From Protoeuglena noctilucae (lineage: Eukaryota), in the NCBI GenBank assembly GCA_958009085.1, contig OY253673.1:682001-746000 (forward strand): 64,000 bases of DNA, written 5' to 3'. The notes below the pieces were generated by a model, which was given only the letters and a program-made list of their open reading frames with translations, was not told where the DNA came from and did no database searches. Both the position numbers and the translations under genes were made by a program. Of this stretch, positions 114-64,000 are shown one piece after another; positions within the stretch are counted from its first letter, which is position 1; each line of letters begins with the position of its first letter.

Positions 114-3100
114 GTGTCGACGTGGGGCTCGGGCGGCGGCCCCATCCCCCATGCGGCGCTCCCTGCGGTACCGAGCGAGTTTGCGATCCCAGAGACCATG
201 CTGCTCAAGCGGCTGATGGAGTCGGGGGACCTGATTGCTCTAAACATGGCGAAGGCGAGCCGTCCTGCCTCTTCCCGGCCGCTGCACGCGCCGCGCCGGA
301 TCCCTGGCCTGTTGCGACGGACTCCTCGCCGCATCGTGCGCAGGATGGCATCTGCATGCGCACGAACGGCAAGTCGTGGCGCTGCGCCAACCCGCGCATG
401 ATGGGTAGCCGGTACTGCACCAAGCATGCGGACATGGAGTCGAAGCGCAACCATCACAGCCGCAAGAGGGACTGGATCGGGCGATGGCGGGCCCACAACA
501 GGGACAGGTGCGAAAGGCTCGACTCCCGGCAGCGTGTGGAGTGAGCGCCCAAGCGTGGCGCCAGCATTCAACCGGTGCGGGTGCGGTCGTTCTCAGGGCG
601 GGCGTCGCGGACGCCCCGAGTGACGACCCGGTTCTGGAGACGAACGCGGCACTGCGCCCGGCCCCACGTAGGGCCGCAGCTGCCCGTGCGAACAACCTGA
701 TCGAGTCACTGGCGGCCGCACCGGGCAGGCAGGTGGGCTACTCGGGCCGCTCGCACCACGTTCTGGCGGCGAACCAGCACCCGATGTTCGCGGGGCAGCG
801 CCGGATGGACCGCTCGCGCATGGATGCGGACGTGATTGTCATCGGGGCGGGGCCCGCGGGGCTGGCCGCGGCGCAGCGCTTGCGGCGCGAGGGGCTGGAG
901 GTGGTCGTCCTGGAGGCTCGGCACCGCCTCGGCGGGCGCTGCCACACCGTGACGCTGCCGGCGGTGGAGGGGACGGAGGGCTTGCTGCCAGAGGTCAGCG
1001 TCGACCTCGGGGCGAGCTACATGCACGGGTGCTGCGACGCGCAGCCCGTGTACCGGCTCTCCAAGGACCTCCGCGTCGATTCCGAGCCCGTGGACGACGG
1101 TCTGACTGAGGCGAGGGGCGCGCTGCAGCAAGGGTCTCCTCACAGTCCCTGCCGGCGTCGCTGCACGCTTTGGCTCATCATAGCAGCAAATTCCGATTCC
1201 ATCGGACGATCGAGCAGCGCGCGTGCGGCGCCACGCAAGCGCTGCAGTGCGTGTGGCGATGGCCGCTTCCCTTGTACCTGCAGAAGGCGGCTTGGTACGC
1301 GAATGGGGAGAGGCACCACATCTTCAAAGTCAAGTCCTTCCACGCGATTCTGCACGCCGCGGGGTCCCTCCTGATCCACCGCACGCGCGCCCGCAAGGAG
1401 GCGGGGCTTGAGGACGTGCCCATCGCCGCCATGATGGAGGGGTGCCTGGCAGACGCGCTGATCGAGCGGGCGCTGAAGAGGCTCCCCATGGAGAAGAAGA
1501 AGGTGGGTATGCGGTGTCATGTGATGGGAAATGGGTTTGCAATGTCAAGAGCAAGAGATGGTGGGCGCAGGGTACGTGAGCTGCACCTTGGTGTGCGCTG
1601 AGCTTCTGGGCTTGCGAGGGCTTACCTTCCATGTTATGTGCACAGAAACATCTTCGTATGGTGTTTCTCTTCGCAGCGGATGGCCCCCGGTGTGCTGGAG
1701 CGCATCCGCACGATGCGACCCCTGTTAGAGGACACGCCCACTCCGTCGCCCGCACCGACACTGCCGCCCGCATCTGAGGAGCGGCACAGGCAGGCGCGGG
1801 GCCATGCCTCGCCTGGCAAGTCCCGCACCCCCAAGGGTGGCCATGGCCACGCAGCGGGCCGCAAGCAGGCGGACAAGTCGCCCCTTGCGCCGCACGCCGG
1901 CCAGCCCAGGTGCGCGAGCCCCCGGCTGGTTCCGGCAGTTGCGTGTTGAAAGTGGAAACCTCGCTGTGTCGCTTCGTCTTACATGTTGTAACACGAATGA
2001 GTCCAAAGCGCTCCCCTATTGTTGTCCCCCTGCAGGGAGGGGAGGGCGGGGCAGGCGACGAGGCATTCTGGCAACGGGGCAGGGACGGGCGTGGTGGGCC
2101 GGGACGGGGCTTCGGCAGACGCCTCGCAGGCGCTGCAGGAGCTGGCGCCCGTGGCTGTGCTGCAGCGGGCGGCGCTGCACGCGTCCGAGGCAACCAGGGA
2201 GGCGGTGGCGGCGGCTGGCGGTCTGCGGATCTTCGCCGACGAGGATCCCATGATGCGCGACCAGGTCCGTGCGTCTGCGGGCGATGATCTGACTGGGACT
2301 CGCTCAGAGCCGGCGCCCGTGCCCTGTCGGTCTAGCCGCGTGACACCCTATGTGCCAACACTCGTGCCAACACCCGTGACTGCGTGCTCACAGGTCCTCG
2401 TCCTCTCCTTCTGCGCCGTGGGGGGCTTCTGCGAGCCCGACGCGGCCCGGTGGGGCATACCGCCCTCAGACGAGGCGCCGTCGGTCAAGTTCCCAATGCT
2501 GGGGTCGCAGGCACTGGGATGCTCCCGCAGCGCCGAGCGCGTGGCGTCGCCGATGCTCCAGGAGGTGCTGGAGGGGTGCACGGAGATCCTGCGCAGGGCG
2601 CGCGGGCCCGGGGCTGTGGCGGCGCGGGTGCTGGGGACCGGGCGTGACGCAGAGGACGGGCCCCAGACGCTGCAAGAGCTCTTGGGGTCAGTGACGGCGG
2701 CGGGCGACACGGCGCCGCTGCGGGCGTCGTTCCTCCGGTCGCTCCGCGCGCAGCAGGTGGTGGCGCGGTTGCAGGCGACGGCTCACGTGGTGTGCGCGCT
2801 CGTGGACCCACTGCTGGCCTTCGCGCTCCTCCACGCCTCCGTCCGGCAGCTCCGCAATGTGCTGGCGGAGATCTCGGTGAGTCCCCGGCACGCCCTGCCA
2901 CAGTGCCACCTCCCTCCTCTTTCGCTCTCCAGCCCTTGGGGTAACGCCGCTCTGCTCTGGCACGCTTGCGAGCAAAGAGTCCAGCTCTGCGTCTCCCGTC
3001 GCAGGCGAACCGAGTCGAGCCGGCCATCAAGGCGGCGTCGGCCACGTCTGCAGAGGGCGTGTGGGACATGGTGATCGGGCAGCTGTCGCAACGGCTGGCG

Positions 3101-6100
3101 GGAGGTGGGCTGGCGGGTCTGCCCCTCCCGGGGGTACTGTCCCGCGCCCAGCGCGCCGCGGGGTGCCTCCGTGGCATGGCGGTCTCCATTATGTCCGCCA
3201 ACGCCGTCGCCGTGCTCCACGCTTTGGCTGCTCGGGACGAGGATGTCGCAGATCCCCACCTCGCACCCGACCTGTGGCCCCTCGGCCCCTTCACGGTGCG
3301 CGCACACAGCTTGCGGCTGCTTTGTGGTGGCTACGATCACCCTGTGTGTCGCTGCACTCCCTCTGGCGTGACTGGGACGGCCGTGGGCCCGGCTGGACCC
3401 CGCAGCATGTGAGCACACACACTCGACATGACATCCGCATCTGCACGACAGCCCTGCCCCGTCCCACCCACGCAGACCCCCGCGATCGAGTCGCTGCAAG
3501 TCGAGGAGGTGCGCCTGGGCACGCGGGCGTCGTCGGGCGCCGTCAGCCGCCCCTTGGCAGGCGGCCCTGGGGGCGATGGGTCCATGAGCAATGGGACCGC
3601 CGTCCCTGGCCTGGCACTGAGCGATTCGGGAGAGGGTGTCATGGCGTCCGCTGGCCCCTCCACGCACGTCGTCGCCGTGTCTGACGTCCACACCCTCCCT
3701 GTGCCTTCCATTCGCCCGGCTGCCGTCCGCCACGCCCACCTTCCCGAGCGCCCCATGGCAGCATTCCCGGACTCCGCGCCGGGCCACGCCGGGCTAGCAA
3801 CTCAGGCGCTTTTCCCGGGTAACGCTGACGCGGCTGACGTGGCGGGCGCCGATGCGAGGGCTGCGGGGTCGGAGGGGGTTGCCCAGGCGAACGGCGATGC
3901 TGGCCCAGGCAACCACGGCCCTACTCACGCTCCGGTGGAGGTCATGGAGGTCGATGTGATCGATGAGCGTGCGGGAGGAGCGTCCCTGGTGTCTCAGTCC
4001 TGTCCTGATGGCGGGGCTGGTGGGGCCGACAGCGGCACTCCCACCCCAGGCACCTCCGCCGTGCCCCAGTTGTCTTCAGAGGAACTCCACCGCATCCAAC
4101 AGAGCCTCGCGACCGCGGAGGCTCCGTGCCTTGCCCCGGTGTCCGTGGCTGGCTCTGCGGTGCACGCGGCGGTGGCGGGCGGTGGGGCGGTTGATGCGAT
4201 TGGCACAGTGGGACCGCCCGTGGGTTTGGAGGGCGGAGTGGCTGAGGCGGGCAGCGAGACAGATGCAGAGAGGGCGGAGGGGCTGCTTGATGGGGCAGGT
4301 GCCGGTCATTCAGCAGGGGAGGTGGGGTCGCGTGCGGCGGGTGTGACGGGTGATGGCGACGCAGTGATGCAAGGAGGTGCGATGGGCGAGTCGGGTGCAG
4401 CTGCCGGGGTGGCTGGCGCAGCGAGGGTGGAGGAGAGGGCTCCGAGCGCGAATGGGCACGGGGGCGATGCAGTGGACGTGCCTGGTGGGGCTGGCGATGC
4501 GGGGCAGGGTGCGGATGCTGAGAACGATGCTCTGGGCGGGAGTGCGAGCGTTTTTCGGTGGGGCCTGCGGCAACGGAGACCTCGAGGGAAGGTGCCAGAG
4601 AAGGCGCCAGAATCGCCGGCGCTGAAGCGGGCCAGGCGGTCTGCGGAGGAGACCCCCGGGCAGGGTGGCAAGGTGAGGGGCAAGCAGGGGCAGGGTGGGA
4701 AGGTGAGGGGCGACGGCGCTGGTTGTCAGCGAAATGGATGAATGCAGCTTTGCTGATTGTCAAGACGCAAACGTGGATGTACTCCGTGCTTGTATGCACC
4801 ATGCGCTGTTCAATCTCTCACATCAGCTCAGCGTCGCTGCTTGTGTGCATGACCGCAGTCGCCCTCGGTGGCCCCGGATGGGGAGGCGCCGTTCACCCTG
4901 GGAGACACCACAGTGGCCGGGGGACCCCTGGGCACCCCTTCCCTGACCGTGGTGCACCGCGCTGTGCAGCGGGCGCAGCGGGAGCTGGGCCTGGACACGC
5001 CAGACGAGGTGCTGCCTGGGCTCGACTGCGCCATGCTTGCGGGCGCCCTGTCCCGGTCGTTCGGCTACGTGGCATCGCTCTCGGAGCTCTCCACGATGGC
5101 GGAGCTGGCGTCTGCGGACGAGGTGGCGATGATCGACGGGGCGGCCAGGGACGCGGAGGGACGCGACGGGCGCGGGGCGGCCGGCGAGGGTGGCAGGGGC
5201 GAGGGCGGCCGGGGCGAGGGTGGCAGGGGCGAGGGCGGCAGGGGCGAGGGCGGCAGGGGCGAGGGTGGCAGGGGGGATACCCTGCTGGCCCCGCGGCGGG
5301 GGCGCATGGCGGGCGAGAACGGAGGCAGCAACGAGGCAGGCGGGGCTGCAGCGGGCGCGACTGGGGTGCCTGGGGGTGCCAGGGCTGCAGGCGCGTGGAT
5401 AACAGATGGGGCGCGTGAGTACATGGGCGGCGGTGATGAGGAGAAGGAGAACGGCGAGAGTGTTGCGGCGCGTGTGGAGCGGGAGCGTGCGGCGCTCGAG
5501 CGGGAGATGCGGGAGCGGCAGGAGATGCTGGGGTTGGAAGGGGCGGTGGGGTTGGACCGGTATGTGAAGCCGGGGTACGGCCCTTTCCTCATCCAGCATT
5601 TGATGCAAGGGTTAGAGGACAGCGTCCGGCTGGGTCACGTGGTGCGCAAGGTGTCGTCCAAGCTGGGGGGCGTGGAGGTCGTGGTGGAGGTACCCATGGC
5701 AGACGCCGGTGAGTGGGTGCGGGTGTGGGTAGCAGTGTGGGTGTGGGTGCAAGTGCGGGTGCGGGTGTTTTTGTGAGTGCTAATGACCGCTGTGTATGTC
5801 CCTATATGCAGAGGACCAGGACTGCCCCGTGTTTGCGAACAAGCCGGCAACCAATGGGCAAGGCGTGCACTGTGCTGTGGACAACCCCCTCCCCGCCCAA
5901 CTGGCCATCCTGGAGGCGCGGTACTCTGCGCACCGTCACGCCGTGCGGCCGTGGAGGGCCAAGTTCGCCATCGTGACAGGTGAGGGCCCGGGTCGTGTTC
6001 GGGTCACCCTGCCACAAGCCACCCTGCCTCATGCCACCATCTCGTCTCACCCTGCCCTGTGTCCACATGCTGCATAACGCTTCTCCCTCCGCTACGACTC

Positions 6101-9100
6101 CCGCAGTGCCCGTGGGCGTGCTGAAGAGCAAGCACCCCCGCAGCGCGATTGAGTTCGACCCGCCTCTCATGCCCTACAAGCGTGCGGCCATCGACACCCT
6201 GGGCATGGGGTGCGAGAACAAGATCGTCCTGCGATTCCCCCACTGCTTCTGGAACCCCACCGTCCCATTCTTCCTCACTGGTGAGCGCGACGGCCCTCGC
6301 CATTGTGTTGACTTTCATAAGCTGCCATCGCCGCTGCTGTTGCCGACAACCGACTGCCTGGCCTGTCTGACCCTTGCCACGAACACACCTCTGCTCTCAA
6401 GTAACCGTTACCACTGACACCGCCCCACCTGCCCCGCCAAGTAAGCCACCCCCGCAAGTAAGCCACCCTCGCGCCTCTCACCTCCCGCAGACGACCCTCG
6501 CGTCCGATTCGTCAACCTGCACGCCTTGGGCAAGGAGAACGTGATCGTGGCGCACGTCCCTCCGCCTTACTCGTACTATTTGGTCAAAGGCCAAGTGCCG
6601 CCCGTCCAGGTCGTGACCAATGCCACGGCGAGCGACAGTGACGCGGGCCTGTCTAATGACGGTGCAAACGGCGATGCGAACGGGCAGGGGCATGCGGAAG
6701 GGAACGGTGTGGCGGGGGACGGTGTGGGTGGGACTGGCGGGGTGGGTGTGGGGTCGGGTGGGACAGAGGTCAGCGCAGAGGCCAAGGTCCTTGCAGCCAA
6801 GCAACTGGTGATGGAGATTCTGCGCAAGAGCCTTTTTGCGGGGGAGGACTCGGTGCCGGAGCCGCTGCAGGTGACGGCACAAGCGTGACTGAGGGTGACT
6901 GAGGCGGCAGTAATTGTGGTCTCCTCCACGATTGCACGATGTGTTCTCATCGACCTTTGCTCGCGCCATCTCCATAAGTCCTTGCACACTCGTCGCCCAC
7001 CTGCCACCATACGCCCTCTCGCAGGTGGTGGTCACCACGTGGGACGCGGACCCCTTTAGCCTCGGGTCGTATTCCTTCATGGGAGTGGGCGCCACGGCAG
7101 GCATGGTCCTCGACCTGGCTGCCTGCGAGGGCCTCCCCGGCGAGTGCCGCGTCTACTTTGCGGGCGAGGGGTGCTCTTTGGAGGGCCACCAGTGCGTCCA
7201 CGGGGCCTACGACACGGGTACAAAGGCCGCCGAGGGCATCGCGCGCCGGCTGTTGAGCCGAAAGGACCCCGGGGTGCCTCAGCTGTTTGAGTATGGCTCG
7301 GCGCACACCGTGTACCACATCCAGTGCAAGGACTGCGGGCAGTGGCGCAAGCTGCCCCAGGGGCTGTCGCCAGAGAACCTCGGGGTGTTTGCGGCGGACG
7401 ATGAGAACTGGACCTGCGCCAAGGTGACAAGCGGGGTGGGCACTGTTCACGGGGTGGGTGCAGTGCGCTGGTGTAGTGTGTGGGTGCGGGCGGGGCACCA
7501 GCTTGTCAGTAGGCAAAGTGCGATCGATGCTCGCTGCCCGCCCTCTCAACAACGCCCGCTGTTCTTCCCAACGACCTCGTTGCCCTCCCCGCAGTGGCAC
7601 AAGTCCTGGGGCACCCGCACCTTCTGGGACCGATGCACGGCAACGCGCGCCACGACGTCCGACGGCGGAGCGACACCCGCCACCGCCGCCGCCGTCGACG
7701 CCGCCGTTTCTGGCCCGGCGGCGCCCCTGCCAGAATCCGCCCGCGACCACGAGGCCAAACCGGAGCTTAAAGATGGCCCGGCCAGGGCGCCGGAGCCCCT
7801 CGGGAGGCCGAGCGAGGCTCCGGGGCAGGTGGCGGTGTCGGGCAGGGCGGCTGAGGTCGGTGGCCCGGCCCAGGCGGCCGTCCCCGTGCCCCGGCAGTCG
7901 GACAGTGCGGGGGCAGCCTGGGGTGGCGCCTCTGTGCCCGTGGCCCCCCTCGCGCGCTGGTCGGACGCGGGGGTCCCGGGGAGCGCACCGCAAGCGCAGT
8001 TCCCCGTCAGTGGGCCCACGCATGCCACGTCCTGGACAGCGCAAGCAGAGACGGGAGGTGCAGGGTACGCGCCGGGATACCAGCTGGGCCCGTCTGCCGC
8101 TTCCCAGGCGCGCGTCGGGCCCCTGGCCGCGTATGTCCGGGGCGGAGAGGCCGGGGGAAGTCACTCCGCACCGCCCCCCGCTTGGGCCGCGCATGCTGTG
8201 CCTGCTGACCCCCGCGCGCCGTTCCAGGGCGGCGCTTACGGCGGCAGCGCTGCGTTCCCGAGAGATGACCGCGCGCAGAGGAGCAGGTGAGCGTGGGTGG
8301 GAGGAGATCAGAGGACGCCCCTGCGTAGGGCCTGGGCGAGTGGTGGATGGCGTGTGTCGGCTGTCGTGTGTTTGGATGACTGGTAGAGGGCTGCAGTGTT
8401 TGGTGGCCGTGTAGATTGGCGGCGCGGGCAACACCCTGGCCCTCCACGCTTGCAGGGACGCCCCGCTGCCGCCGCACTCGGGTGCTGAGGGGCCTGGGGT
8501 GGTGGCGGGGGTGGACACGACGAAGGGGCTATCCCGAGAGGACCGCATCCGGCAGAGGGAGGAGATCAAGGCGAGTTGAAGGGAGGGGCTGGGTGGAGTT
8601 GATGTGGGTAACACAGATGACGCGGAGTGAGGGTGGAGCCAGGATGCACATAGCATGGATGACCCACTTGTGGTGACTGCCACCGCGTGGTGCGTCGGAA
8701 CGATCAGCAACGCGTCCCGTCGCCGCAGACCAAGATCGCAGAGCGGGTGGCGCAGGGCGACAGCCGGGCCAAGCGCTACAACATGCCAGGCAGCGGCCTG
8801 GTGCGGCGCCCACCCAACACCCGCTGCCGGTTCTGCAAGAGCAAGCACCTGGGCGGGTGCGGAACGGACGAGGCGCGGGACGGGTGCCTGAAGCGGCCCC
8901 GGAAACCTGGGGACCCAGTGCCACGACCGGGGCGCATGAGCCGTCGGCGCCCGTCGGCGTCTCAAGGCCCGGGGGGCTCCATGAGCGGGGACTATGGGGG
9001 CTCCGGGACGCTGGGGGAGGGCTCTGAGAACTACTCGGGTGAGCGGGGAAGGCGGCTGGCTAACCGGGCACTCTGGACAGGCGGGTGAAGGTAGTACCGA

Positions 9101-9871
9101 GTCGCGACGAGCGGGGTGCGTACCCTCACCCTGCGTGTTCCTTGGCGTGACTGCAGGGGAGGCGGATAGCGTCATGGACGGCTTTGGCCCCATGGAGGGA
9201 GGACTGATGGGAGCAGGCACCACAACGACCCTGGCGCAGCTGCCGGTGCCGGGGCCGCAGTGGCGGAGCGGGGGTGTGGCGGACGCGCATGCGCACGCCG
9301 CCCCCGTGCCAGTCGCGGTGCCAGCTCCGGCGCCGGTGCCCCCGCCGAGCACTGCCGTGGTCGGGCCCGCGCGCCCCGTGCCCACGCGCATGCCGGGCGT
9401 GAGAGCCGGGGCCGCCATGCCCGGCGCAGCCACGCCAGGTGACACACAGCACGCAGCACGCGGATCGCAGCGAAGCGAGGTTTCCTGCATCGATCCAATG
9501 CCCGGCCTTGATGATGTGCGCATGCTCGTGGCTGCCACTGGCACTGGCACTGCATGTCAATTCCATCTGATGCCCACTCACTCCACCCCTGAGCCACCCA
9601 TGCGCGCCCCTTCCCCGCAGCCGCGCCCCTCGCGCACGCTTTCCAGGCCTTCGCGACGCCGGGTGCGGCCCCCGACAGACGCGCGGCGCACCAGGCCTGC
9701 CTGCCATTCGCCGCGTCTGCCGCCCTGCCGCACCGAGCGTTCCCGCCCAACTACGGTCCGTCGGCCTTCGCTTGGCGCCCAGGCATGCTGGGCCCGGGGG
9801 CCCAGCCCAATCAGCCGCCCGTGCCGCACGCGTCGGCGTTCCGACCCCACGAGCAGGGCGGCGTGCTGTGA
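114..9871 (+). CDS. LSD1/KDM1-like flavin amine oxidase (putative histone demethylase) with WRC and CW-type zinc fingers; multi-exon, 5' end probably upstream of the window
   Basis: WRC motif (CMRTNGKSWRC..YCTKH, 344-427). FAD-binding VIVIGAGPAGLAAA..VVVLEARHRLGGR and DLGASYMHG (830-1030). C-terminal oxidase half with GMGCENKIVLRF (catalytic-Lys position), WDADPFSLGSYS and VYFAGE..VHGAY. zf-CW-like HIQCKDCGQWRKLP..WTC (~7317-7420). The junctions I checked are phase-consistent; the last exon (stop 9869-9871) is less certain. Confidence 0.8.
5183..5275 (+). repeat. 15-bp exonic tandem repeat encoding (GEGGR)x~6
   Basis: GGCGAGGG(C/T)GGC(A/C)GG units, translated as GEGGRGEGGR... in ORF 4868..5776. 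Confidence 0.9.
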
Positions 9872-10587
9872 GGGTGCTGCGACCGTCACCCCGCAGCAAC
9901 CAGCGCCCCGCACCTGGCCCAGGGCGGGAGGCACGTGGCGGTGCGCGCCCGGCCCGTTTGTTCGCGCGACGCTTTCTCATAAGCGGCGCATTGTAGTTTC
10001 CGGGGAAAGCGATTGCTTCCCACTTGACGAGCAGCTGTTTGTGCAGTGCAGTCGCAGAGGTGCCAGCCGCGCTGGCTGGCCGTTCGCAAGGCGCAGGTCC
10101 CATCGGGCGTTGCGGAGGCGGCGTAAGTGCGCGACCTATTTGCGGTGGATGCTAGCCCATGTCCTGCCGAGTGAGAGCTGTCTCAGAGCGGTGCACGCCC
10201 CGTCGCCATCCGTTGACCCGTCGCATGTGACGCAGATGCTTGCCTTGGCTGCCATGTCCGTCGGCGGGCGCGCCAGACTGGCGTCCGCCAGCCCTGCCCC
10301 CTCTTGCGCGCCCGTTGGCCCATGACCCGCTTGCTTTGCTCGGCCCAGATCAGCAGTTACGACAGTGGTGTTTGAACTGTTTTGCGACAGCCAGAGGGCC
10401 ACAAGCCAGCCACACTCGATCGTTCCCGTCCCGACCGCTTCAACCGGCCTGAAGCGGCCCTCTATCTGAGCTGCGGCAATGCGGGACCACCCCGCCCGCC
10501 GCAAGCCCCCCCGGCCGAGCCCCGCGCGGCGCCAGCGGCCCGGCGATATCGAAAAGGGTGGAGGCCACGTGAGGGGACCGCCCCGGC

Positions 10588-11766
10588 TCAGGCGGACTTC
10601 CAGCCGATGGGCTTGTAGTGGGTGCGCAGCATGCGGGCCGCCTGCTTGCGCGAAAGCTTGGGGTTCTGGTGGTCCAGGGCCTTGGCCACGCCCGCTTCGG
10701 GCTCCTTGAGCACCAGCTCCACGTGGCAGGGCGACGAGAGGTAGGGGTTGACGCGCCCGTGCGCGCGGTACGTCCGGCGGCGGCCCTTCATGGCCTTGTT
10801 GACCTGGATGTGCGACACCACCAGGTTCTCCACGTCCAGACCCCCCTCAGCCTGCGGAGGTGCGGACGAAGAGCGCGCTCAGCTGCCCGGAGGGTCGGCA
10901 GATGCGGCCGGCGCGGGGAAAACGCCGGCACCCCCCCGAGCCCTGGCCGACCCGCCCGCCGCGACGCGCGACATCCCCGCCGGCCCAGCCCCTCGCCTCG
11001 GCGTTCGCCACGGCGTTCTGCAGCAGCGAGAGCAGGAACTTGCACGACTTCTGGGGCCACCGACCCTGGCCCGTCGTCGACCCCTCCGTCTTGGCCTGCG
11101 CCGTCCTCCCCACGCCACCCGTGAAGCGCGTGAACGTCACGCAGCGCTTATGGGCGATGACATCCTCCAGGAAACGCTTGGCGTCCTTCTGCTTCAGGCC
11201 CATAATCGACTTGGCCGTCTCCCGGGTGTTCTTGAAGTGCACCCGAAGATGGCTCCCGCGGGCCTGCGCCAAAGAAGCAGGGGAGACCATCGGACGGCGC
11301 CCGGGCCGCACCGGCGAGCCGGCCCGCGCCAGTCCCGACCCCGGGGGCAGCCTTGGGGGCCTCCCGAGCGAGAGATCGATCGCTCGTTCATTCAGGACAA
11401 TGCCGGGCATCGTGGGGGGGCGCGCATCGGCCCGCAGAGGATGCCCGGTCCCTTTTGGCAGACGCCGAGCCGTCCTGCCCGTGTCCCAGCCGAGAGGGGC
11501 ATCCGTGCGCGGCGACGAGACGCAAGCGCGATAGCACGCTTCCGACCGGGCCTCCGCCCGCCCCCCGCGCCGCTCGGGGCGCAAGCCGGCAGGGGTGCCG
11601 GGGAACGGACGGAGGAGGTCTCCAGCCCCGCCCAGGCCGTCCAAAGCGCAGAGGAGGTGAATATCCAACGACGTGCGCCCAGTGCGCTGTCGCGGGGGCC
11701 CCCCGTCACCTTGGCCACGCGGTCGCTCTTCGACGAGAGCTTCTCGTAGCTCGGCCTTTTCGTCAT
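10588..11766 (-). CDS. RPL17: 60S ribosomal protein L17 (uL22), 3 exons (11766-11710, 11263-10997, 10851-10588)
   Basis: [34 protein letters not shown] and [23 protein letters not shown] are canonical RPL17 motifs; junctions are in phase. Confidence 0.95.
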
Positions 11767-11976
11767 TTGGGCCCCTTCCCCTACCCCATCGAGAAAGGGC
11801 GAGCAGGGGCGCCCGGGGCCCGGTTTCTGCAGGGGGGCCGTGAAACGCCCGATTCTTGCCAGAGACACGCCACCGGCGCTCTTCGCCTGCAGCATGCCAG
11901 CCCCCCGCGCTTCTCAGAACAGCCCGCACGGTCGCCCGCAGTGCCGCGCTTCGCCCGGGACCCGCCGGTGGGCGTC

Positions 11977-28479: not shown

Positions 28480-34081
<5,602 letters not shown>

Positions 34082-49168: not shown

Positions 49169-49382
49169 CGCGGCCGGCCTCGCCAGAGGCTCGCGCGGCC
49201 GGCTTGCGCACGTCTCGGGACGAAGCGCACATTTGAGGACCCCGTTGATGGTTCTCCGTGACACGTGTTTCTTTTCACAACTCATTTCCTAGCGGTGCCC
49301 CCATCGCGCCAGCACCCGTAAGCTGCTGCTCGTCTGAATAGAGCGGTCATGCTAACGAACTGGTTCAGCGCCACAGTGTGAC

Positions 49383-49775: not shown

Positions 49776-50331
49776 GGCTGCTCGCCGACGGTGTAGCGAG
49801 AAGTCTGCGACCACGAGGACTCACACAGCGTCCGCCGCTGGCGTCCGCGGCAGGCACGGAGTGCTGGGCCGCCAAGCAGCGTCGCAGCTTGCTCTACCCC
49901 GCGATTCCCGACGCTCCGACTCTCGATGCGCTCTCCAGATCGCGTCCATCACCCGCGTCACCTGTCCTCTTCAAGGAGAGCTTGCTACGCTCACGAGATG
50001 AAGGGTGGTATAAAGTGCCCAGACAATCGCGCGTCCTCCTGGCCTGGGGTTGTGAGTACGATACAACTGCGATAGGGAGCCTGAGGATGGGATGGGGGGG
50101 TCATGAAGGGCCGCCTCAGGCGCCGTCTGTCAGGCCCCCCCGTTAGGTCCGCCATCGTGCTTGCCAAAATCTCAGGACAATCCTTGGGACTCCATCTCAA
50201 TTGTGCAGCAGCGGGTATCCGCGAACTTCGTCGACGGCTTCTTCCCCCTTTCCGTGCAAATCATAGCGCGCGGCAGGACCCTCGGCACCGCGCTTCGCAG
50301 CGCTTTGAAGCCCCCCGGGCGGCGGGCATAG

Positions 50332-51161
50332 ATGTCGAGCGTGGCTCGTGCTCGGCTCGCCATGGAGCGGAAAAACTTCCGCAAGGACCATCCGTGGGGC
50401 TTCGTGGCCAAGCCCTCCACACGGCGTGAGTTTGCAGAGTGCGGCGAGTCCCGCAGGCTTGTTCGCACCGCCTCCGCCCCGCAACCGTCCGCTCGCATCG
50501 CTCGCAGCGGAGGATGACGACAAGAGTCAGAACCTGATGCTCTGGACCTGCCGAATCCCGGGGAAGGATTCCACGGAGTGGGAGGGTGGGAGCTACCCGC
50601 TGACTCTGGAGTTTTCCGAGGACTATCCCACGAAGCCGCCCATCGCAAGGTTACACTTGGATACAAGAGACACATGGAGATGCACCGGGACACGCCGCGT
50701 CGCGTCGAAACTGAAAAATCGCACTGCGTATGCGCCTTTCCCCAGGTTCGAGCAGGGTTTCTTCCACCCGAACGTCTTCCCGTCCGGCAAGGTCTGCCTT
50801 TCGATCCTCAACGAGGAAAAGGACTGGCGGCCCTCCATCACCGTCAAGCAGATCCTCTTAGGCATCCAGGACCTGCTCGCCAACCCCAACGGCGAGTGCC
50901 CCTAGGACAGTGCCCTCGGGTGTCCCATCACCGGGACATCGATGACGTCGTGATCGTGCGCGTCGGATGGCGCCCGCCGCGTCGCGCTGTGGGGTCACCC
51001 TTTGCAAGTGGAGTGGCCCACACGCCCCGCCCAGCCCCGCCCCTCGCCCCCGTGCTGCAGAGAACGACCCTGCGCAAGAGAACGCATACAACGTGTTCCG
51101 CAACAACAAGACCGAGTACTCGAACCGCGTGAAGGAGCAGGCACGGAGGTATGCGGCCTAG
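50332..51161 (+). CDS. UBC9: SUMO-conjugating enzyme E2 (4 exons)
   Basis: [79 protein letters not shown]. Confidence 0.96.
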
Positions 51162-52504
51162 GCAGACCAACACGTCGTCCGGGCAATCGGCCTGAGCGGA
51201 TGGGGGGGTGCGGGTGGCGCCAGAGGGCGTCTTTCTTTAGCAGGGGTAGGATTGGCAGAGGGGAGCACGAGCACCTGTGGCAGCAGCCGGCGCGCTGGCT
51301 TGGCGTCTGCTGCGCGCGCGACGGCGTTTCTAATTCTGACACAGACGTGTTGAACACGCTTGGGCGTGGCACGAGGGGCGTGGAAAGGCTTGTCAATGCC
51401 AATGCAGTTCAGGGAAGCTCCGTGCAGCAGGCGCCCTAGGATGCGGCGCTGCCCACGGGAATTGTCGCAGGGGAGCCGCTACAGTGCCAGGCAGGCCGCC
51501 AGAGCGTGCCGCCAGAAACATAGACCTTTGCGGGGGTTGCTCCTGACAAAGCCCCTCAGCCGGGGCGGGGTGGGGTGGGGTGGAGAGCCAAAGGATCGTG
51601 CAGGGCGCGGTGGGGGGCTGGCACAACTCGGTGCGGCACGACGCGGCGTGCGCAGTGAATACCCACGCGCTGGCGTGAGAGAAAGGGTCGGCTCTATGGG
51701 GACGTGCCCGGGACAGGAACAGGGAGCCAAGCAGGCAACGGAAGGGTCCAGCGCCAGGCACGCTCCCTCCAAGACATCCAAGCCATCTGCGTGGCCTAGC
51801 GAGCGCCATGCGGGTGCGCGGCGCTCATCACGGCCACCGTCGGCGATCGAGTCGGGGCGGTGGCGGCGGCCGGAAAGCGACCGCGGCTGGGCTACATGGG
51901 CTACATGGGCTGGGGGCCGTGGTGGCGAGCGCTGGGCCAACAGTGTCGCAAGGTCCAAGCACAGCAGCTGTTTGCGCAAAGGGGACCGGGGGGGGGCTCT
52001 CTTACTCTGAAATCACCTGCGGGCGGCTGAACGCACGAAGCTGGGGTGGGGGGTTGGGCATAGGGGTGGCGCGTGCTGCCCGTCGGGCCGGGCCACGCGT
52101 GGGTGTGGCGTGCCGAGAGAGCACGGCACGCAAATGGGGCTGGGCTGCACCAGTCGACCGCCCGTGGCAGTCTGAGGACTGGAGGGGCGGAAACGGGACC
52201 TCACTACTGTTTCCTAGCAACGTGCATCCAGGGAGAGGGTCGCAGCCAGGGCACACCGTGGCTTGCGGGGCGAGGGTGCCAAGCAAGGGGCGTGCAGGCG
52301 CGGACGCCCTCTCCCCGGACGTGACAAGCTGACGGCTGGTGGGGATGCTGCCCGTAGCAGCGCTGTGCATGGCGCTGGCCCCGGAAGTCGCGGCATCGGG
52401 CGCGCCTGTGCCGACGCACGCGGCCCCTGTGGTGCCGGCACAAGGGCACTCGGCGCCACGCGCCCGCCCGGGCATCCAGAGCTACGCACGCCTCCACCGG
52501 CGCG

Positions 52505-55500
52505 TCAGTTGGCTAACTTGGCCGCGATTCCTTCCCGCTCGCCGGCCGGTCCCATCCCGGCCCCGCCCGTGCCGGGCCGGGCCACGAGCTCATCCACGGA
52601 CGACAGCGCCCGGCCCTCCCCCTGCCCCTGCTTGGACCTGGAGTTCTTGCGCGTCGAGCCGGGGGAGGCCGAGAGGGACGCCCGCGACTGGTCGATCGAC
52701 ATTGTGAAGTCCGTGCCGCCCAGGCTCTCGGGCATGTCGTCCAGGAGGGGGCTGAAGCGGTAGCACGTCATGACCCCCTTGCCCTTGACCTCCACCACGT
52801 GCCGGCGGCGGGCGAAGATGCTCTGGTACGCGGGGGACAGCTCACGGTACGTGTCCTGGGTAGAAAGGAGCGGGGGCGATGGTGGTGGTGGTGGTGGTGG
52901 TGGTGGTGGTGGTGGTGGGTAGAGGTGCGCCAGGCCAGGCAGGCAGGACCGGAGAGGCCATGGAGCAGATGGGAGAGCATTGGACGGTATCCAGGCAGCA
53001 CTGGCGGGTACTGCTGTGCCAGAGCGGCGCTGGTGGGCTGGCAAGTGCGCGTGACGCCCCGCATGCCCCTCGCGCCCCTCGCCTCGGATATCTGGATGGT
53101 GTTGGCCTCCGAGGTGCTCTCCATGCGAGACGCTACGTTGACGCTGTCGCCCAGCAGGGTGAACTTCTTCCGCACCAGCCCCACGACCCCAGACATAACG
53201 GCCCCTGTGTGCACCCCGACGCGCACCGCCAGGGGCACCCCGTCCGGCTGCGGGGTGGGGAGCGCCAGCGCGTGAGGGTGCCAGGTGGGCCGCGGCACGC
53301 TGCATTACCCCTCCCTGCCTTGTCATATGTCGCCTCGAAGCAAGGGCGGACGTAGACCGCACCATGACGGGGCCCATAGCGCCGTGCGGCGCGACATCCG
53401 TAGTACTACAACGGACTCTCCCACCGCTGCCGCGTCTCTCGCCTGCATCATCGTGACGGCCTCGGCGACGGCCCGGATGGCATAGTCGACAACGCGCGTG
53501 GCGTGGCCAGGCTGGCCGTCCAGGCCGTCCAGCGCGATGTAGCAGTCGCCGACCGTGTCGAGCTTGTAGATGCGCATCTTCAGGCACATGCGGTCCAGCG
53601 TGCAGAAGAGCTCGTGCAGCATGTAGGTGATGCTCTGCGGGTCCACGCTCCCTGCGCAGGCACAAGGCGGGGCGCGGGTCACCGCGTGGCGTGGCGGGCA
53701 CCCGCGGTGACCAGAAGGTACGGCCGAGGCAGGGGAGGGGGGCTCGCCAATGTGCAGGGAGGGCGGCGGTGGAAGAAGAGCCCGCTGTGCAAACGGTGCG
53801 CCATTCAGCAGGGGTGCGGCGTGCAAGGGTGCGCCAATCAGCAGGGGCGCGGTGTGCAAGGGTGCGCCAATCAGCAGGGGTGCGGTGTGCAAGGGTGAGC
53901 CAATCAGCAGGGGCGCGGTGTGCAACGGTGAGCCAATCAGCAAGAGTGCGCCCGGGCGGCTCTCGGCTCTCGGCTCTCACCCGACAGGCTTGTGAACTCG
54001 ACGACATCCATGAACATGATGGTGCACGCGGGCGCGAACTTCTGGTGCGGGAGTCGGCGGGCGTGGGATCGGAACTCGATCACGTCGTCCCGCCCCGTCC
54101 TAAGCAGCTTCGACACGTACGAGTGCACGCTGCTGCGGCCCAGGGCCAGCGCCACGTCCTGCGGGGGTCACCCGAAAGCCGCGTCGTTTCGCAAAGAAGC
54201 ACATCGAGACAGAGATGGGGGGCTGTGGGCCGGTTGGGACGCTCCCATCGCAACTGAAGGTGGCGACTCGCCTTGGGGTAGAGGTCTCCGACGATGAGCT
54301 CCTGCTGCTGCTTGTTCTTGTGCAATAGGTACCCCATGCCGAAGTTGAGGAGGGCGAGGACGACGTTGAAGCCGGCGTTGAGGGGGTACTGGGGCGTGGC
54401 CCGCTGGGTCATGAACATGAGCTCGCGGTAGATGGTGCCCAGGAAGGCGAGCAGCATGAACCAGTTGGACTCCATGACGCTCGGGAGGATGGCGACGGAC
54501 ACGAACACCAGCAGCTGCGGGGGCGGGGGCACGCGGGGCGTCGACCTGTGCAGCGGGGCGTCACATCTACGGGCGGGCAGCACCGAGTCCCCGTCCGGGG
54601 GAGGTGAGGGAGGTGGAGTGGCGGTCACGCTGCGGTGCTCGCCGATCCCTCACCATGCTGCAGTACTGGAGGGTGTGGTTGCCCCCGATGACGGCCGCGG
54701 CCACGTCCGGGAAGGCGCCCTTGTGGACCACGTCGACGCCCTCGACGACGATGGACGCGGCGAAGGAGATGAGGAGGTTGACGAGGGTGAGGACCGAGTC
54801 GTTGTGGTTGAAGAGGCTCAGGATCTGCAGGACGCCCATGTAGAGCGTCTGGGGCATGACGACCGAGTCGGGGACCGGGAAGGCCGACACGCGCATCTGG
54901 TAGACCGTGTTCACGGTCGCCAGGTTGGCCAGCGTGATGAGCACCCACGCGCGGGCGCGCGTCGGGCTCCGGCTGAGGATCAGCCAGGCCAGGGCTGCGG
55001 GCGGGGCGGGGCACGCGGGCTTCGCGGGCGCCTGGGCGGCGCGGCGGGCCGCGGGCGGGGTCGCGGCGACGCGGACGCACCCGAGACGAGGCCGTCGACG
55101 AAGAGGGAGAAGGCAGCGACCTGGCAGGCCCTCCGCGGGTCCAGGACGAGCGACGTGAAGATGAACCAGGGCGAGAACAAGAGGTCGACGGTGCCGTTGA
55201 GGAGGAGGCCGACCCACGCCTGCTCCGGAGCGATCGTCGTGGGCCGCGAGGGGACCGCCGGGCGCTCCGCGATCGCCTCCTCCACCTCCTCCGGGTGCGC
55301 CAGGCCCATGATCTGTTTGAGCTTCTTCAAACGCTCCCCGTCCCGGCTGTTGCGCACGCGCTTGACGCGAAAGATGTAGTGCTCCGGGTCGGCTGGACCG
55401 TACTCCGACCCGTCCTCGCTGCTGCGCGCGGGCAGGGGACCAAGGGATCGCCCTCGCGCATCCCCGCGCCTCGTTGCGGGCGCGCAGGACCGGGCAGGAC

Positions 55501-56328: not shown

Positions 56329-59300
56329 ATGGTGAAGGCCAACGCAGAGGCCGTGAAGGTCGTGGTCCGATGCCGGCCGATGAACCAGAAGGAGCTGGAC
56401 GATGGGCGCAAGTCCATCGTCCAGATGAACCCGGCGACTGGGCTGGTGCAGGTCAACAACCCCGAGCCATCGGCGGGCGACGAGGGCGTCAAGAAGTTCA
56501 CCTTTGACAAGGTCTTCGCCCCCGACGTGAGTTTGTGAGCGGCGTTCTTTAAGTGGAGCGCTGCGCTGTGGTCTTTAAGTGGAGCGCTGGTGTGTTCTTC
56601 AAGTAGAGCGCTGCGCGTGGAGCGCTGCGCCCGCCCCCGCGGCAAGGATCCCCGTCACATGCGCACGGGCGTGGGGTGCGCCGGCGCCCCGATGCAGGGC
56701 GCAGGTGACCGTGCCTGACCGTACGAATGCAGGGATTTGTCCTCTTATCGGCATGCAGTGCACCCAGTACGCCATCTTCGAGGAGGTGGCCAAGGCGCAG
56801 GTGGACGCGTGCATTCAGGGCTACAACGCGACCATCTTCGCCTACGGGCAGACGGGGACGGGCAAGACGTACACAATGGAGGTGAGAGCTTGCTCGGCGG
56901 CGATCTCCCTGGCCAAGCGTGCACCAGGCGCGGCTCGCAGGGCAGAAAAGAGCCGCCGCCGCTGCTTTTCGCAGGGAAAGGGGGACAAGGAGACCCAGGG
57001 CGTGATTCCGAACGCATTCGAGCATATCTTTGAGTCTCTGAAGGCCGATATGTCCGGGCGCGAGTACCTCGTGAAGGCGAGGGCACCGCAGAGCGCGCCC
57101 CTGGCCTGCCGCGCCGTATCCCTCCGCGAGACCCGCCCCGTTCGCATCCCCAGGTGTCGTATCTAGAAATCTACAACGAGGAGGTCCGCGATATGCTCGG
57201 CAAGGACCCCAAGGCCCAGCTCAAGCTGCGGGAGGACCAGAGCGGGGGCACGTATGCGGACGGGCTGAGCAAGTTCGTGGCGAGCAGCGCGGCGGACATG
57301 TTTAAGTTCCTCGAGATCGGCCGCAAGAACCGCGCGGTGGGCGCCACGGCCATGAACGCGGGCTCCTCGCGCTCGCACTCCATCTTCACGATCCAGGTGG
57401 CCTCGTCGGAGGTGGACGAGCGGGGCAACGAGCTGTCCCGCGTGGGGAAGCTCAACCTGGTGGACCTGGCCGGCTCCGAGCGCGCGGCCAAGACGGGCGC
57501 CACGGGCGAGCGCTTCACCGAGGGCGTCAAGGTGAGGGAGGCGGCGGCGACCGTGCAACGGACTAGATGGGCCTGCAGCCCCTTTCCCCGGATAGCAGCC
57601 CGCGCACACTGACCAGCGCTGTAATGAATGCTGTCCATGTGTCAGCTGCACCCCCTTGCCTCCTCGTTACGCAGATCAACATGTCCCTCACCGCCCTCGG
57701 AAACGTCATCAGGTGACGGGGCAGCAGGGACGAGGGAGCTAGCTTGAACTAGGTTAAGGGGTCCGTGCCTGCCAGCGCTCCGTCTCATGCAGCTCCCAGC
57801 TCCACGCAGCGCCCCACAGTCACCAGCACCCATGCCGCACCGGGCCCCGCATCGCACCCATCCCCGCCCCCGCCCCCGCAGTGCCCTGGTCGACGGGAAG
57901 AAGCACATCCCCTACCGCGACTCGAAGCTCACGCGGCTGCTCCAGGACAGCCTGGGCGGCAACAGCCGTACGGTCATGTTCGCGATGACGGGGCCGGCGG
58001 ACTGGAACTACGATGAGACGGTGTCTACGCTGAGGTACGCCGATCGTGCTAAGCGCATCAAGAACAAGCCGACGATCAACGAGGACCCGCGGGACCAGGC
58101 CATCCGGGAGTACCAGGAGGAGATCCAGCAGCTGCGGTGAGCGGCAGGGGGGGTTGGGATGGTTGGGTCGGGCGTGGTGTGGTGTGGGTGGTGTGGTGGG
58201 GAATGACGACCACTGCGTTCCTTCCCCAGTGCCACTGCTTGCCATTACTGGGACTGTCCACTGCTCACTCACTCACTCACTCACTCACTCATTCACTCAC
58301 TCACTCACTCATTCACTCACTCACTCACTCACTCACTCACTCACTCACTCACTCACTCACACTCACTCACTCACTCACTCACTGCTTCACCTCTCTTCTG
58401 AATGGCCTCAGGGAGGCCTTGGCGCAACTCAAGGCCGCGGGTGGCGGCGACGGCGCCACCGCGGGCGGCAAGCGCTCGGCCTTCATCCTCCCGATCCCCC
58501 TGCGCATCCCCCGCGTGACGCCCGCTCCGGCGCAGCAGGCGCAGGGCACACAGAGCGACGCCGCCACGGAAGAGGCAGGCGATGCGGCGGCCGGCGGCGC
58601 GGGTGGCACCAAGGTCCTGAAGGTGCCCATCCCGGTGCCAGTGCGGATCCAGGGACAGACAATGCAGACCGAGGCGGCGCCTGAGCCCGCCCCGGCCGAC
58701 CCCGCGTTGGTCGCCAAGGCCGAGCGTGCTGACCAGCTCTCGGAGGAGCTCGTGCAGACGGCCAAGAAGGCGGACGAGCTGTCCAGCAAGGCGAGTTTTG
58801 ATGTCAGCTACTGTTCGGGAGCCCGCGCCACGTGCAGGACCCTGCTAGGCTGTCCCTGCCTCAGCCATCACCTGGCTTTCACCAACCACCCCACGGTGCC
58901 GTCCCTGCCTCAGCCATCGCCTGGCTCAAGCAATAGCAACAAGTCACCCCGCCGTGCCGTCCCTGCCCTCAGGTGGCGGACCTGTCCCACGACGTCCTGG
59001 AAGCCAATCGCCGTGCAGAGGAGCTCGCGAGGGGCAACTCGGACCTCGGGGCCCAGGCGGAGGCAGCAAGGGAGAGGCTCAAGGCCACAGAGGAGGCGCT
59101 GGTCGCAGCGAGGGAGGCGATGCGGCAGGCGCGCGACGTGGCAGGGAAGGCCCAGCAGGAGGCCCTGCAGCTCAAGGCCGAGGCAATGGCGCTCAAGATC
59201 GCGGCCGAGCGCGCGCAGCAGGTCGCGCGGCGCGCACAGGACGTGGCGCGCGCCGCACAGCACGTGGCCAAGAAGCGCCCGCCCCGGGTGCGGTTCGTGG

Positions 59301-61011: not shown

Positions 61012-62841
61012 GGCCTTCTCCTGGGGTGGGGTGAGTGAGCGGGGTGAGTGGGGGTTGAGTGAGCAGGGGAGTGGGTGAGGGCAGTGCGGCAAGCGGTGGG
61101 GTGAGTGCAGGTGAGGAGTGGGGCAAGCTGTTGAGGGTTCGCAGTGGGGCATGCTGCACACAAATGCGATGGCAAGACACGGTCGGCGTTTGTTCCAAAC
61201 GACAGCGCCCGCCGGGTCCCATGCGCACGCGTCACGCCACCACAAGGTGGGGCAAAATCCCACCTTGGCCAGCGCAAAGGCGTCCCGGACGAGCTTGGCG
61301 CCGTCCCCGATGAACATCTGCACGAGCTGCGGCCCGGCCAGCTTGAGGAAAGTGCAGTTGGTCTCGGCGGCGATGGCACGGGCGATGAGGGTCTTCCCCA
61401 CTCCGGGGGGTCCGTACAGGAGGCACCCCTTGGGCGCCTTGATCCCCAGCTTCTTGAACTTGTCCGCGTGCGTGATGGGCAGCGAGATGGCCTCCTTCAG
61501 CTCCTGCGATGCGGTGAGGGCAGGCGCGTGTGGGTGAGGGTAAGGCCCAGGTCACATGATGGGGAGCGAGATGGCCTCCACCACAACGCCCTCCCATCGC
61601 TCGCCGCCTGCCCGCCTGCCACCATGGCACCCACATGCATGCACAACCACACCAATCACACAACCACCCACCCAGCCAACCACCCACAATCAACTCACCT
61701 GGATCTGCTTGTCGAGCCCCCCCACGTCGATGAACGTCTCCTTGGGCTTCTCGTCCACCTCCATGGCCTTCACCCTCGAGTCATACTCGGCGGGCAGCTT
61801 GTCGAGCACCAGGTACGAGTCCTTGTTCACGCCCACCAGGTCGCCGGGCTTCAGGTCCTGCTGGCAAGGGACCGGGGGTGAGAGCGGGTGAGGGCGGGTG
61901 GGTCAGGGCAGGGTGAGGGAGGCGACAGCAGGTGAGAGCGGAGGCGGTGACGATGGCGGGCGAGGGCGGAGGGTGTGATGAGGGCAAGGTGCCCTGCGAC
62001 GAGGCCCACCATACATGATGTGTCATTTTCATTTTCCCTATATATCTCCTTATCCACTCGCCTTGGGGTCCACGAGGCCCACCACGGGCAGGAAGACCGT
62101 CTGCCGGGTGGAGGTCTTGAGCACGACCGCCTTGCCCTTCCTCTGCGCGTCCAGGTCGATTGCCCCGCCGTCCTCGTCCTCCTCCGGGTCCATGTCCAGA
62201 ATCTCCACGATGTTCCCCACCAGATAAGGCAGCTGGTTGTTCAGCTTGATCTTCTCCTTGTTCTCCTTCACTCGATGGTCCAGGCCCTTCAGGTCGTGCT
62301 CCAAGCGCTTGCCCTCGTCCTGCCAAATCCGTAACTCGTTCTGCGAAGCGGGAGGCAAGCCGGTCCGGCGACGCGGGGCGCCAGGAAAGCGCAGGGAGCG
62401 CGGACACGGATGCAGAGAGCCCTGCGGCGGGCCAAGGCCACGGCAGCGGAAACGAGGGCCGCGATGCGCACAGGGGGCAGTATCGGAGCACTGCAGGGAC
62501 CGCGGCTCGCGTGCCCTTCCACAGCGGGCGCGGCAGGGTCCCCGAGACGCTTCGCACGAGGGACGCAGCGCGCAGGGCCGCCGCGGGGGCGCGAGTGCCA
62601 CCCTGTCCGCAGATCTCCACTATGATGACTTCCACGAGCGGCGCAGGTTTGGCGCGCAGGTACCCCACGGCCCCTGGTTCCCATTCACGACATTGAAAAC
62701 CTGCCCCTGGCCCCGTCCCCGCCAGATCTACTTCCTCACTTGCAAAAGCCTCGTCCTCCTCTCAATGTCCTCCACGGACATGGTCGTGAATTCCTCAGGG
62801 AGCTCATCCTGCCCCTCAAACACCGCCTGCTCGATGTCCAT
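60226..62841 (-). CDS. RPT5: 26S proteasome AAA-ATPase subunit RPT5 (6A)
   Basis: [38 protein letters not shown], Walker [47 protein letters not shown]-terminal HbYX motif YYV. Confidence 0.96.
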
Positions 62842-63364: not shown

Positions 63365-64000
63365 ATGGAAGCAAAGCCAGCCGCCAAGGCCCTGGCGGTG
63401 CCGCTCCTGTCAGAGCACGAGTCGTCCGCGATTATCAAAGCACTGCAATCGGGCCGCGAGAAGGCAAGCGTCCCCCGCGGCCTGCGCGCGGCGCTGACAG
63501 CACTCTCCAACGCGGACAGCCATCCTGCCCCCCGCGCACCGCAGCCCCTCCGCGACGCGGTTCGGGACGCGCATGACGTCATCGCGGGCAGAGGCTACCA
63601 TGTGATGTGCATGGCGTTCGCGTTCCTCGCCTGCAATCTGCCGTCCCTTCGGTGACAACCCGCGCGATCCGCGCCGCAGCAGCCCGCGTGGCCCCGCAGC
63701 TCGCGCTGCCCTCGCCGCGAAGACCCTTATTCGCTTGCTTGCTTTCACCGCAGAGACCGGCTCTCGTGCACCTTCGCCCTGCATGCGCTCGCGTGCCAGG
63801 GCCCCGCCATCCAATCTTCCGGCGCCCAGAGGGCCAGCGGCCCCCTCCCTGCGCCTTCCGTCCGCCCCATCTCCGCAACCGCATGGGACGCTCTGCTGAG
63901 CCTCATCAGCGACGCCAGGTAGGACCTGGGGACCAACCATGCTGTCCGCACCAGCCTAGGTGTGCTGCAAGAGGCCTCTCACGTGTCATTGACGCGTCTC
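63365..64000 (+). CDS. Possible CCR4-NOT subunit 11 (CNOT11)-like protein, 5' part; runs off the window
   Basis: Spliced N-terminus LLSEHESSAIIKAL..EK|PLRDAV..YHVMCMAFAFL..LR|DRLSCTFALH resembles the plant CNOT11 N-terminal helical pattern as I recall it; weak evidence. Confidence 0.4.

Follow-up and report, generated by a model that had tools for sequence, protein, structure and literature searches.

Abundant GC-AG Introns Gated by Donor Context in a GC-Rich Green Alga

Introduction

Introns that begin with GC instead of GT account on average for 1.2% of donors in plants (PMC6310983). A 64,000-nucleotide stretch of the Protoeuglena noctilucae genome (contig OY253673.1, positions 682001–746000; hereafter the window) raises the question of how a genome could come to use such donors routinely. 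An initial annotation cited 22 GC donors here with the consensus (A)G/GCRAG (the slash marks the exon–intron boundary), put their share at a sixth to a fifth of all introns, and proposed that the lineage has relaxed or altered 5′ splice-site recognition. In this study, we examined RNA contigs, protein homology, gene predictions from other contigs, spliceosomal genes and metagenomic relatives, which revealed that GC-AG splicing in the window is real, that about one intron in six carries a GC donor, and that these donors are concentrated where the flanking bases match U1 small nuclear RNA (snRNA) almost perfectly.

The genome comprises 26.3 Mb in 27 contigs with a GC content of 66–67%; the window itself has 66.5%, and 10-kb stretches range from 0.60 to 0.71. 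A nuclear rbcS gene, a green-alga marker, is present, and the best PDB match of the splicing factor Prp8 is 8xi2, which we take to be a Chlamydomonas structure. Together with the Prp8 tree described below, these sequence markers indicate that the host is a green alga.

GC-AG Splicing in the Window

The donor motif was found at all 22 cited coordinates in the form (A or C)G/GCRAG, 21 of them reading AG/GCRAG and one, at 50892, CG/GCGAG. RNA evidence came from contigs of four runs, representing at most three samples of one study, that were placed on positions 10550–30549; runs X5 and X10–X13 were left out, as they contain almost none of the sampled words. Fifteen of the 39 joints in this region were inspected, with every allowed shift of the boundary checked. 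At three of them GC..AG is the sole reading that begins with GT or GC and ends with AG, and each was seen in 4/4 runs: in RPL17 (L22 family; 10852–10996, minus strand, GAG/GCGAGG) and twice on the plus strand in the malic enzyme gene (23401–23554, AAG/GCGAGG; 24172–24349, CTG/GCGAGT). The last of these was absent from the list of the initial annotation. For intron 2 of the alanyl-tRNA synthetase (AlaRS) gene (13030–13129, plus strand, AAG/GCAAGT), the length of the RNA contig permits two junctions only, both with GC donors, given the flanking junctions as modelled. The RNA contigs were also checked for the use of nearby GT donors, and only GC donors fit these four introns. Among the inspected joints, 11 belong to host genes, three of them GC..AG and eight GT..AG; three others are minus-strand GT..AG joints inside a transposon, and a single-run joint at 11104–11214 (side 23), which is probably foreign, was excluded.

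Protein homology extends this evidence beyond the RNA. Pfam alignments run ungapped across the GC junctions of RPL17 (donor 10996, family positions 55 and 56), the malic enzyme intron at 24172, the two cysteine synthase introns (PALP family, minus strand; 45749–45916, positions 179 and 180; 46058–46245, positions 133 and 134), an MCM gene intron (29572–29700, plus strand; MCM_N 31 and 32, extrapolated by two residues) and a cyclase intron missing from the earlier list (53248–53442, minus strand; Guanylate_cyc 94 and 95, extrapolated). RNA cover of the MCM gene is almost nil, so that its junctions are unreadable from contigs; at its other GC intron (31272–31519, plus strand) the Pfam alignment to MCM is continuous from 46 to 48 except for one open position. 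Residues 154 and 155 of KIF3B are continuous across the junction in the kinesin motor domain (57077–57153, plus strand), as is PDB Ubc9 numbering (124, 125 and 126) across that in UBC9 (50892–51060, plus strand, ACG/GCGAGT). Protein searches returned a single match for the proteasome ATPase RPT5 and none for the cyclase. P0001 aligns without gaps at the RPT5 junction (61858–62061, minus strand). The RPT5 acceptor at 61858–61861 is a tandem CAGCAG, of which the downstream AG is favoured by homology.

Database protein P0015 is identical to the spliced model of a 69-amino-acid minus-strand gene and spans both of its GC introns (intron 1, 49583–49670; intron 2, 49401–49495), and another database protein is identical to the spliced model of U1C, covering one GC intron. 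Both proteins most likely derive from cDNA contigs. A Pfam search of the 69-amino-acid protein returned no family, and the name "TOM7-like" comes from the initial annotation.

In total, RNA or homology independently verifies 12 of the 22 cited sites; the other ten (255, 1111, 8571, 18623, 19528, 26713, 53082, 54271, 58791 and 63464) are predicted by the gene model. These ten leave some room for the view that the GC donors are artefacts of assembly errors, or that nearby GT dinucleotides are the true sites. Two of them are plus-strand sites in a Plavaka-like transposase: at 18623–18704 the model needs an intron to bridge a frameshift and an in-frame GT competitor lies at 18575, and neither this site nor 19528–19633 found support in the RNA, whose contigs show minus-strand splicing and continue through the two predicted introns. 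At the verified sites, the RNA joints, the homology and the identical database proteins refute such a view. For the GC donors as a whole it is also countered by the null control and by the recurrence of the same motif in independent relatives (see below), as well as by the four RNA runs, which contain all sampled words of positions 44700–52000 and are possibly the source data of the assembly. We regard an artefact as extremely improbable.

Frequency of GC Donors in the Genome

A purpose-written gene finder was seeded with the GT introns of seven window genes, given GC, GA and GG donors at 1% each, and self-trained on a 780-kb sample of 22 other contigs (ab initio, 3% of the genome). It called 1431 introns in this sample, of which 1152 have GT, 248 GC, 18 GA and 13 GG donors, so that the GC share outside the window is 17.3% (confidence interval 15.5–19.4). 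Shares per block range from 8 to 27%, a heterogeneity that is non-significant (p=0.23). The window yields 26 GC donors among 129 called introns, including 21 of the 22 cited sites; the 22nd was called once the window was extended. The finder recovers ten of the 11 host junctions seen in RNA and misses the first RPL17 intron, although this comparison is not fully held-out, as the window supplied the seed. The share of a sixth to a fifth given by the initial annotation is therefore close to the counts both inside and outside the window, and the rate, about one intron in six, is real and roughly fifteen times that usual in plants.

Only the GC class gained a consensus during self-training. GA and GG donors stayed at decoy-level counts without a consensus and were dismissed as noise, as was a GA/GG-type call in the last Prp8 intron, probably a model error. 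When all called donors were set to GT and the finder was retrained, it called 10 GC donors among 1436. When 17% of donors were randomly set to GC, it recovered 72 of 73 in strong contexts and 131 of 155 in weak ones.

At least one GC intron occurs in 159 of 278 predicted multi-exon genes, and annotation restricted to GT would damage over half of such genes. The warning of the initial annotation that standard predictors will mis-annotate this genome appears reasonable, and GC donors missed by standard predictors have precedents in Micromonas pusilla CCMP1545 and Emiliania huxleyi (PMC4815162, PMC4028052).

Donor Context and Intron Anatomy

GC donors carry A at −2 in 93%, G at −1 in 99%, A at +4 in 91% and G at +5 in 99% of cases, versus 58, 92, 64 and 87% for GT donors. 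Position +3 is strongly G as well, in 92% of GT donors (sampled blocks L004–L081). When donors are ranked by their matches to U1 at −3, −2, −1, +3, +4, +5 and +6, GC accounts for 46/54 of those with seven matches and 179/456 of those with six, and for 42/656, 7/301 and 0/62 as matches drop further (85, 39, 6, 2 and 0%). In the context AG/GYRAG, 232 of 490 donors are GC, versus 42 of 1039 in all other contexts. This gating is not a detection bias, because weak-context GC donors introduced at random were largely recovered (131/155). If T at +2 is itself counted as a match, GC makes up 12–23% of donors at totals of 4 to 7.

Apart from the donor, GC and GT introns are alike in length (median 129), in the rate at which they break the frame or remain open as multiples of three, in acceptor, in position within the gene and in the rate of branch-like motifs. 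The acceptor is CAG in 273 of 274 GC introns and in about 98% of introns overall. In strong contexts, GC introns have GC-richer bodies than GT introns (0.633 vs 0.604, p=0.0004) and lie in genes of slightly higher third-codon-position GC content (p=0.03). The GC share of strong-context donors is 201/449 (45%) with G at +3, against a background of 45–55% in introns, and 31/41 (76%) with A at +3, against 75–83%.

These proportions suggest that the GC donors are ordinary U2-type donors held under a pairing threshold, in which GC pressure turns T at +2 into C wherever the flanks leave slack, an explanation that we hold to be probable. An unaltered U1 would read every donor, and a donor would need only a threshold amount of U1 pairing. 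Mutation or gene-conversion bias may drive the A/T positions of donors (−2A, +2T, +4A and +6T) towards G/C, and a donor could lose one or two of these pairing positions and still work. Where the flanks are near-perfect (AG/G.RAG), T at +2 would be the position lost about half of the time, so that +2 may act as one more pairing position rather than as an invariant one, with changes there close to neutral in a strong context. Of the initial proposal of relaxed or altered recognition, the tolerance at +2 stands; elsewhere in the motif GC donors keep to the consensus more strictly than GT donors do, and the snRNAs are canonical (see below).

Selection may add a modest push by disfavouring GT donors of full U1 complementarity, which are scarce: T occupies +6 in only 8 of 154 MAG/GTRAG donors, versus a background of 12–18% (p=0.003 to 1e-5). 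Hyperstable U1 pairing hinders the exchange of U1 for U6. The same observation, together with the 46 of 54 fully matched donors that are GC, could be read more strongly, as positive selection of GC donors for regulatory or deliberately weak sites that serve alternative splicing or retention or avoid an over-stable U1 duplex. We consider this quite improbable, since the share of 85% is indistinguishable from the third-position background of 0.77 (p=0.25), and GC introns are distributed over genes at random with no sign of clustering (p=0.72), occur in housekeeping genes and alternate between GC and GT from one relative to another.

Spliceosome Components

A profile search and a DNA search each found a single U1 locus, whose 5′ end is canonical, and the pairing regions of U6, U5 and U2 are canonical as well. 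Searches for U1, U2, U5 and U6 turned up a single locus apiece (L001 1501–1660, L002, L003 and L191), counts that are lower bounds. No variant U1 complementary to C at +2 was found among the 41 of 427 profile candidates that were scored, and four loci with an 11-mer of this complementarity proved not to be U1. The donors lack a U12-type ATATCC-like signal, and a search for U12 snRNA gave no match, in a run without a positive control and with U11 not searched. Genes for Luc7, a METTL16-family protein and SNRNP27 are present.

The initial annotation had pointed to U1, U6, U1C and Prp8 as places where substitutions might be found. The snRNAs offer none, and those seen in the two proteins are not specific to the clade. 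U1C (L082 1501–2662) has Leu at position 18 and Val in place of Ser19, a residue that is Leu in a closer relative; Val at position 19 also occurs in database proteins P0005–P0007, and Ostreococcus has Thr. In yeast, Ser19 of U1C is reported to contact C9 of U1, and its loss to weaken the binding of U1 to the donor (PMC4436669). Prp8 shows changes at conserved positions in 13 of 169 sites of the RNase H domain versus 25 of 1049 elsewhere (p=0.001). Near-invariant positions substituted here and in the two relatives described below are 1522, 1533, 1739, 1778, 1782, 1831, 1841 and 1868 (own numbering). Both the U1C and the Prp8 genes carry GC introns themselves.

Such substitutions allow another explanation, in which a change in a spliceosomal protein, U1C or Prp8, cut the cost of C at +2 either at U1 binding or at the catalytic step, and GC pressure then filled the space so opened. 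Besides the loss of an RNA-contacting residue of U1C and the RNase H excess of Prp8, it draws on the sharing of the trait by both sampled clade members, and it is retained mainly because, among algae, the trait does not follow from GC content by itself. The recurrence of the U1C Val in P0005–P0007, with Thr in Ostreococcus, may speak against it, as does the presence of the RNase H excess in L097/L100, where 0 of 12 introns are GC, and in L157, L158 and L161. Moreover, the snRNAs are unchanged, the three accessory genes are present, and U1C is described as making no base-specific contacts (PMC4383343). We treat both the U1C and the Prp8 changes as leads only and a protein change as rather unlikely. 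This and the pairing-threshold explanation are not mutually exclusive. A bolder combination is, in our view, similarly doubtful: the spliceosome of the clade may no longer privilege U at +2, and a protein change (candidates being U1C Ser19Val/Leu and the Prp8 RNase H substitutions) together with a penalty on fully complementary donors would, without any part played by introners, make GC the form preferred at the strongest donors. With its single U1 gene, relatives of differing GC-donor rates and orthologous GT/GC switches, the clade would then offer a natural experiment on why GC donors are tolerated in only some GC-rich algae.

Relatives and Intron Turnover

Relatives were sought by a scan for Prp8 in metagenomes, of which the best 80 of 604 loci were kept. 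Two contigs, L091 (Prp8 90% identical) and L094 (84%), group with the present genome (G000) with support 1.0 in an unlabelled tree of 75 sequences, and both also carry neighbouring genes of the G000 Prp8. Predicted introns with GC donors of the same consensus number 3 of 8 in L091 and 6 of 8 in L094, or 9 of 16 together. The trait thus appears to be common to the clade of these three genomes, as the initial annotation had supposed in describing it as a property of the lineage.

Six intron positions are shared with these relatives. Three are GT in both genomes, one is GC in both, and two are GT here and GC in the relative: GAG/GTGAGC here corresponds to GAG/GCGAGC in L094, and AAG/GTGCGC here to AAG/GCGAGC in L091, where A at +4 compensates. 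A comparison of paralogs gave one informative pair (seven GT/GT, one GC/GC) and one doubtful match.

Introns themselves come and go. The Prp8 gene (L087+L088 3736–14409) has 13–14 introns here, none in L091 and one or two in L094, and only one of 13 Prp8 intron positions has an exact match in any of the 80 loci. A kinase that is 95% identical between G000 and L091 has five introns private to the former and three private to the latter. These comparisons, in which gain and loss are unpolarised, suggest that introns turn over fast, with no introner families in sight.

Heavy turnover of this kind is what would be expected if the GC donors were the legacy of old introner waves with GC ends that have decayed beyond recognition, and 79% of the GC donors of M. 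pusilla are reported to lie in introners (PMC4815162). No such family emerged among the 274 GC introns of the sampled 3% of the genome. Only two of 274 GC introns had any blastn match at 1e-5, and a sensitive run gave matches for 28 of 274 GC and 140 of 1255 GT introns, an equal rate. The sampled introns show no GC-specific length class (Kolmogorov–Smirnov p=0.31), direct repeat, target site duplication (TSD) or terminal inverted repeat (TIR). An end-to-end inverted-repeat excess is small and shared (k=7; z of 3.4 for GC and 3.5 for GT introns), and GC introns show a marginal enrichment of two k-mers, which could be taken in favour of such a legacy. The GT/GC switches at shared positions point instead to conversion in place, and gating by exon bases suggests that selection acts on the site rather than that a mobile end was carried in. 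An introner origin is on this evidence unlikely.

Comparison With Other Algae

The benchmark of about 1% used by the initial annotation applies to model organisms only, as published shares for several GC-rich algae lie between 8 and 65%. M. pusilla CCMP1545 is reported to have 22–26% GC donors, a genome of about 66% GC and a canonical U1 5′ end (PMC4815162, PMC3033335), in all of which this green alga resembles it. Most of its GC donors, however, are borne by D-IE1 introners, with 9.7% in regular introns (PMC4815162), whereas the 17% found here come without a repeated intron family, and the Prp8 of the present genome forms a branch separate from putatively Micromonas-like loci. Another GC-rich green alga, Chlorella sp., also has a raised share (7.7% GC-AG; PMC3033335), but less than half of the rate here.

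Outside green algae, the haptophyte E. huxleyi has 56–65% GC donors and a few validated GA donors (PMC4028052). It is likewise a GC-rich marine alga with an unchanged AG acceptor, and its donors have been explained by genomic GC; they are dominated by GC, whereas GC is here a tightly context-gated minority and GA and GG remain at decoy level. The pelagophytes Aureococcus and Pelagomonas have GC-rich genomes with 14–17% GC-AG introns (bioRxiv 10.1101/2024.10.30.620910, 10.1101/2021.10.25.465678), and up to 39.6% in another report (PMC3033335). These stramenopiles are described as intron-poor, with TIR-bearing introners and a length peak at about 210 nt, whereas genes of the present genome contain about five introns each, and neither a TIR or TSD nor a length class is specific to GC introns. 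The abundance of GC donors in GC-rich algae has been called an enigma, and a canonical U1 was noted in those that were checked (PMC3033335).

Plants and mammals offer a parallel in their U2-type GC-AG introns, in which a stronger flanking U1 match compensates for C at +2 and orthologous introns switch between GT and GC (PMC6310983, PMC3167603, PMC2490688). Human GC donors have been described as compensated by their flanks, as pairing at +2 through a C:A wobble and as fixed neutrally where the context is strong (PMC3167603, PMC4383343, PMC2490688). Such introns amount to about 1% in those lineages, unlike the 17% here, where GC is the majority at fully matched donors. A few GC-rich algae with similar rates have thus been reported before, and what sets the present case apart is a high rate without introners that extends across a green-algal clade. 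A literature search by trait profile, not by species name, yielded no publication describing GC donors in such an alga, which does not show their absence from print.

Several observations weigh against the pairing-threshold explanation. The GC share of 45% in strong contexts with G at +3 is well below the intergenic (0.69) and third-position (0.75–0.78) backgrounds. GC is still the weaker donor, because its predicted U1 duplexes are weaker (median −6.4 vs −8.3 kcal/mol) and predicted exons contain 55 unused AG/GCRAG motifs versus 4 AG/GTRAG. High GC content is not sufficient either: M. commoda is reported to have 64% genomic GC and yet 1.5–2.7% GC donors (PMC3033335, PMC4815162), and other GC-rich green-clade loci gave 0/12, 1/16 and 3/28 GC introns, with 0/2 at a further green-clade locus, under a model trained on the present genome. 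The genome-wide count is an ab initio one on 3% of the genome, and the shared intron positions are only six, with the direction of the GT/GC changes unpolarised. The best green-algal precedent is confounded with introners, whereas the present case is introner-free as far as sampled, and a simple quantitative rule combined with a clade should make the effects of mutation pressure and of an altered machine separable.

Other Predicted GC-AG Introns and a Transposon in AlaRS

The remaining GC introns of the window are predicted by the model. Three lie on the plus strand in one gene (255–343, AAG/GCGAGC; 1111–1283, GAG/GCGAGG; 8571–8728, AAG/GCGAGT), which spans 198–9871 and encodes WRC and split amine-oxidase domains in one predicted protein of more than 2200 amino acids, which may begin before the first position of the window. 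No in-frame GT alternative exists within 45 nt of donors 255 and 8571, nor of those at 26542–26713 (minus strand, AAG/GCAAGG) and 48314–48422 (plus strand). The latter was absent from the initial annotation, as was a predicted intron at 34563–34723 (minus strand). Two further introns belong to the minus-strand cyclase gene: at 52856–53082 the Pfam match reaches the last residue of the upstream exon and is lacking in the downstream exon, and 54159–54271 is predicted by the model, as are 58791–58972 in the kinesin tail and 63464–63544 in a gene leaving the window end, called with the window extended (both plus strand). A single RNA contig at 25528–26219 covers the 3′ end of the malic enzyme gene and a convergent minus-strand gene, which suggests overlapping 3′ ends.

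The transposase sites belong to a young Plavaka-like DNA transposon (about 16017–21598; weak PF18759 match) with at least 24 copies at 99–100% identity. A third predicted transposase intron on the plus strand (20090–20236), unlisted in the initial annotation, has a GT competitor 6 nt upstream. The element sits within the final AlaRS codons, so that the stop of that gene, at 16067, falls inside it. No sense splicing of the transposase was seen among the RNA joints inspected, the reads of which may stem from any copy. RNA over the element (15968–21594, minus strand) is spliced antisense to the transposase in 4/4 runs through strong GT-AG introns at 18194–18396, 19222–19345 and 19547–19834, and this antisense RNA is possibly a regulatory transcript.

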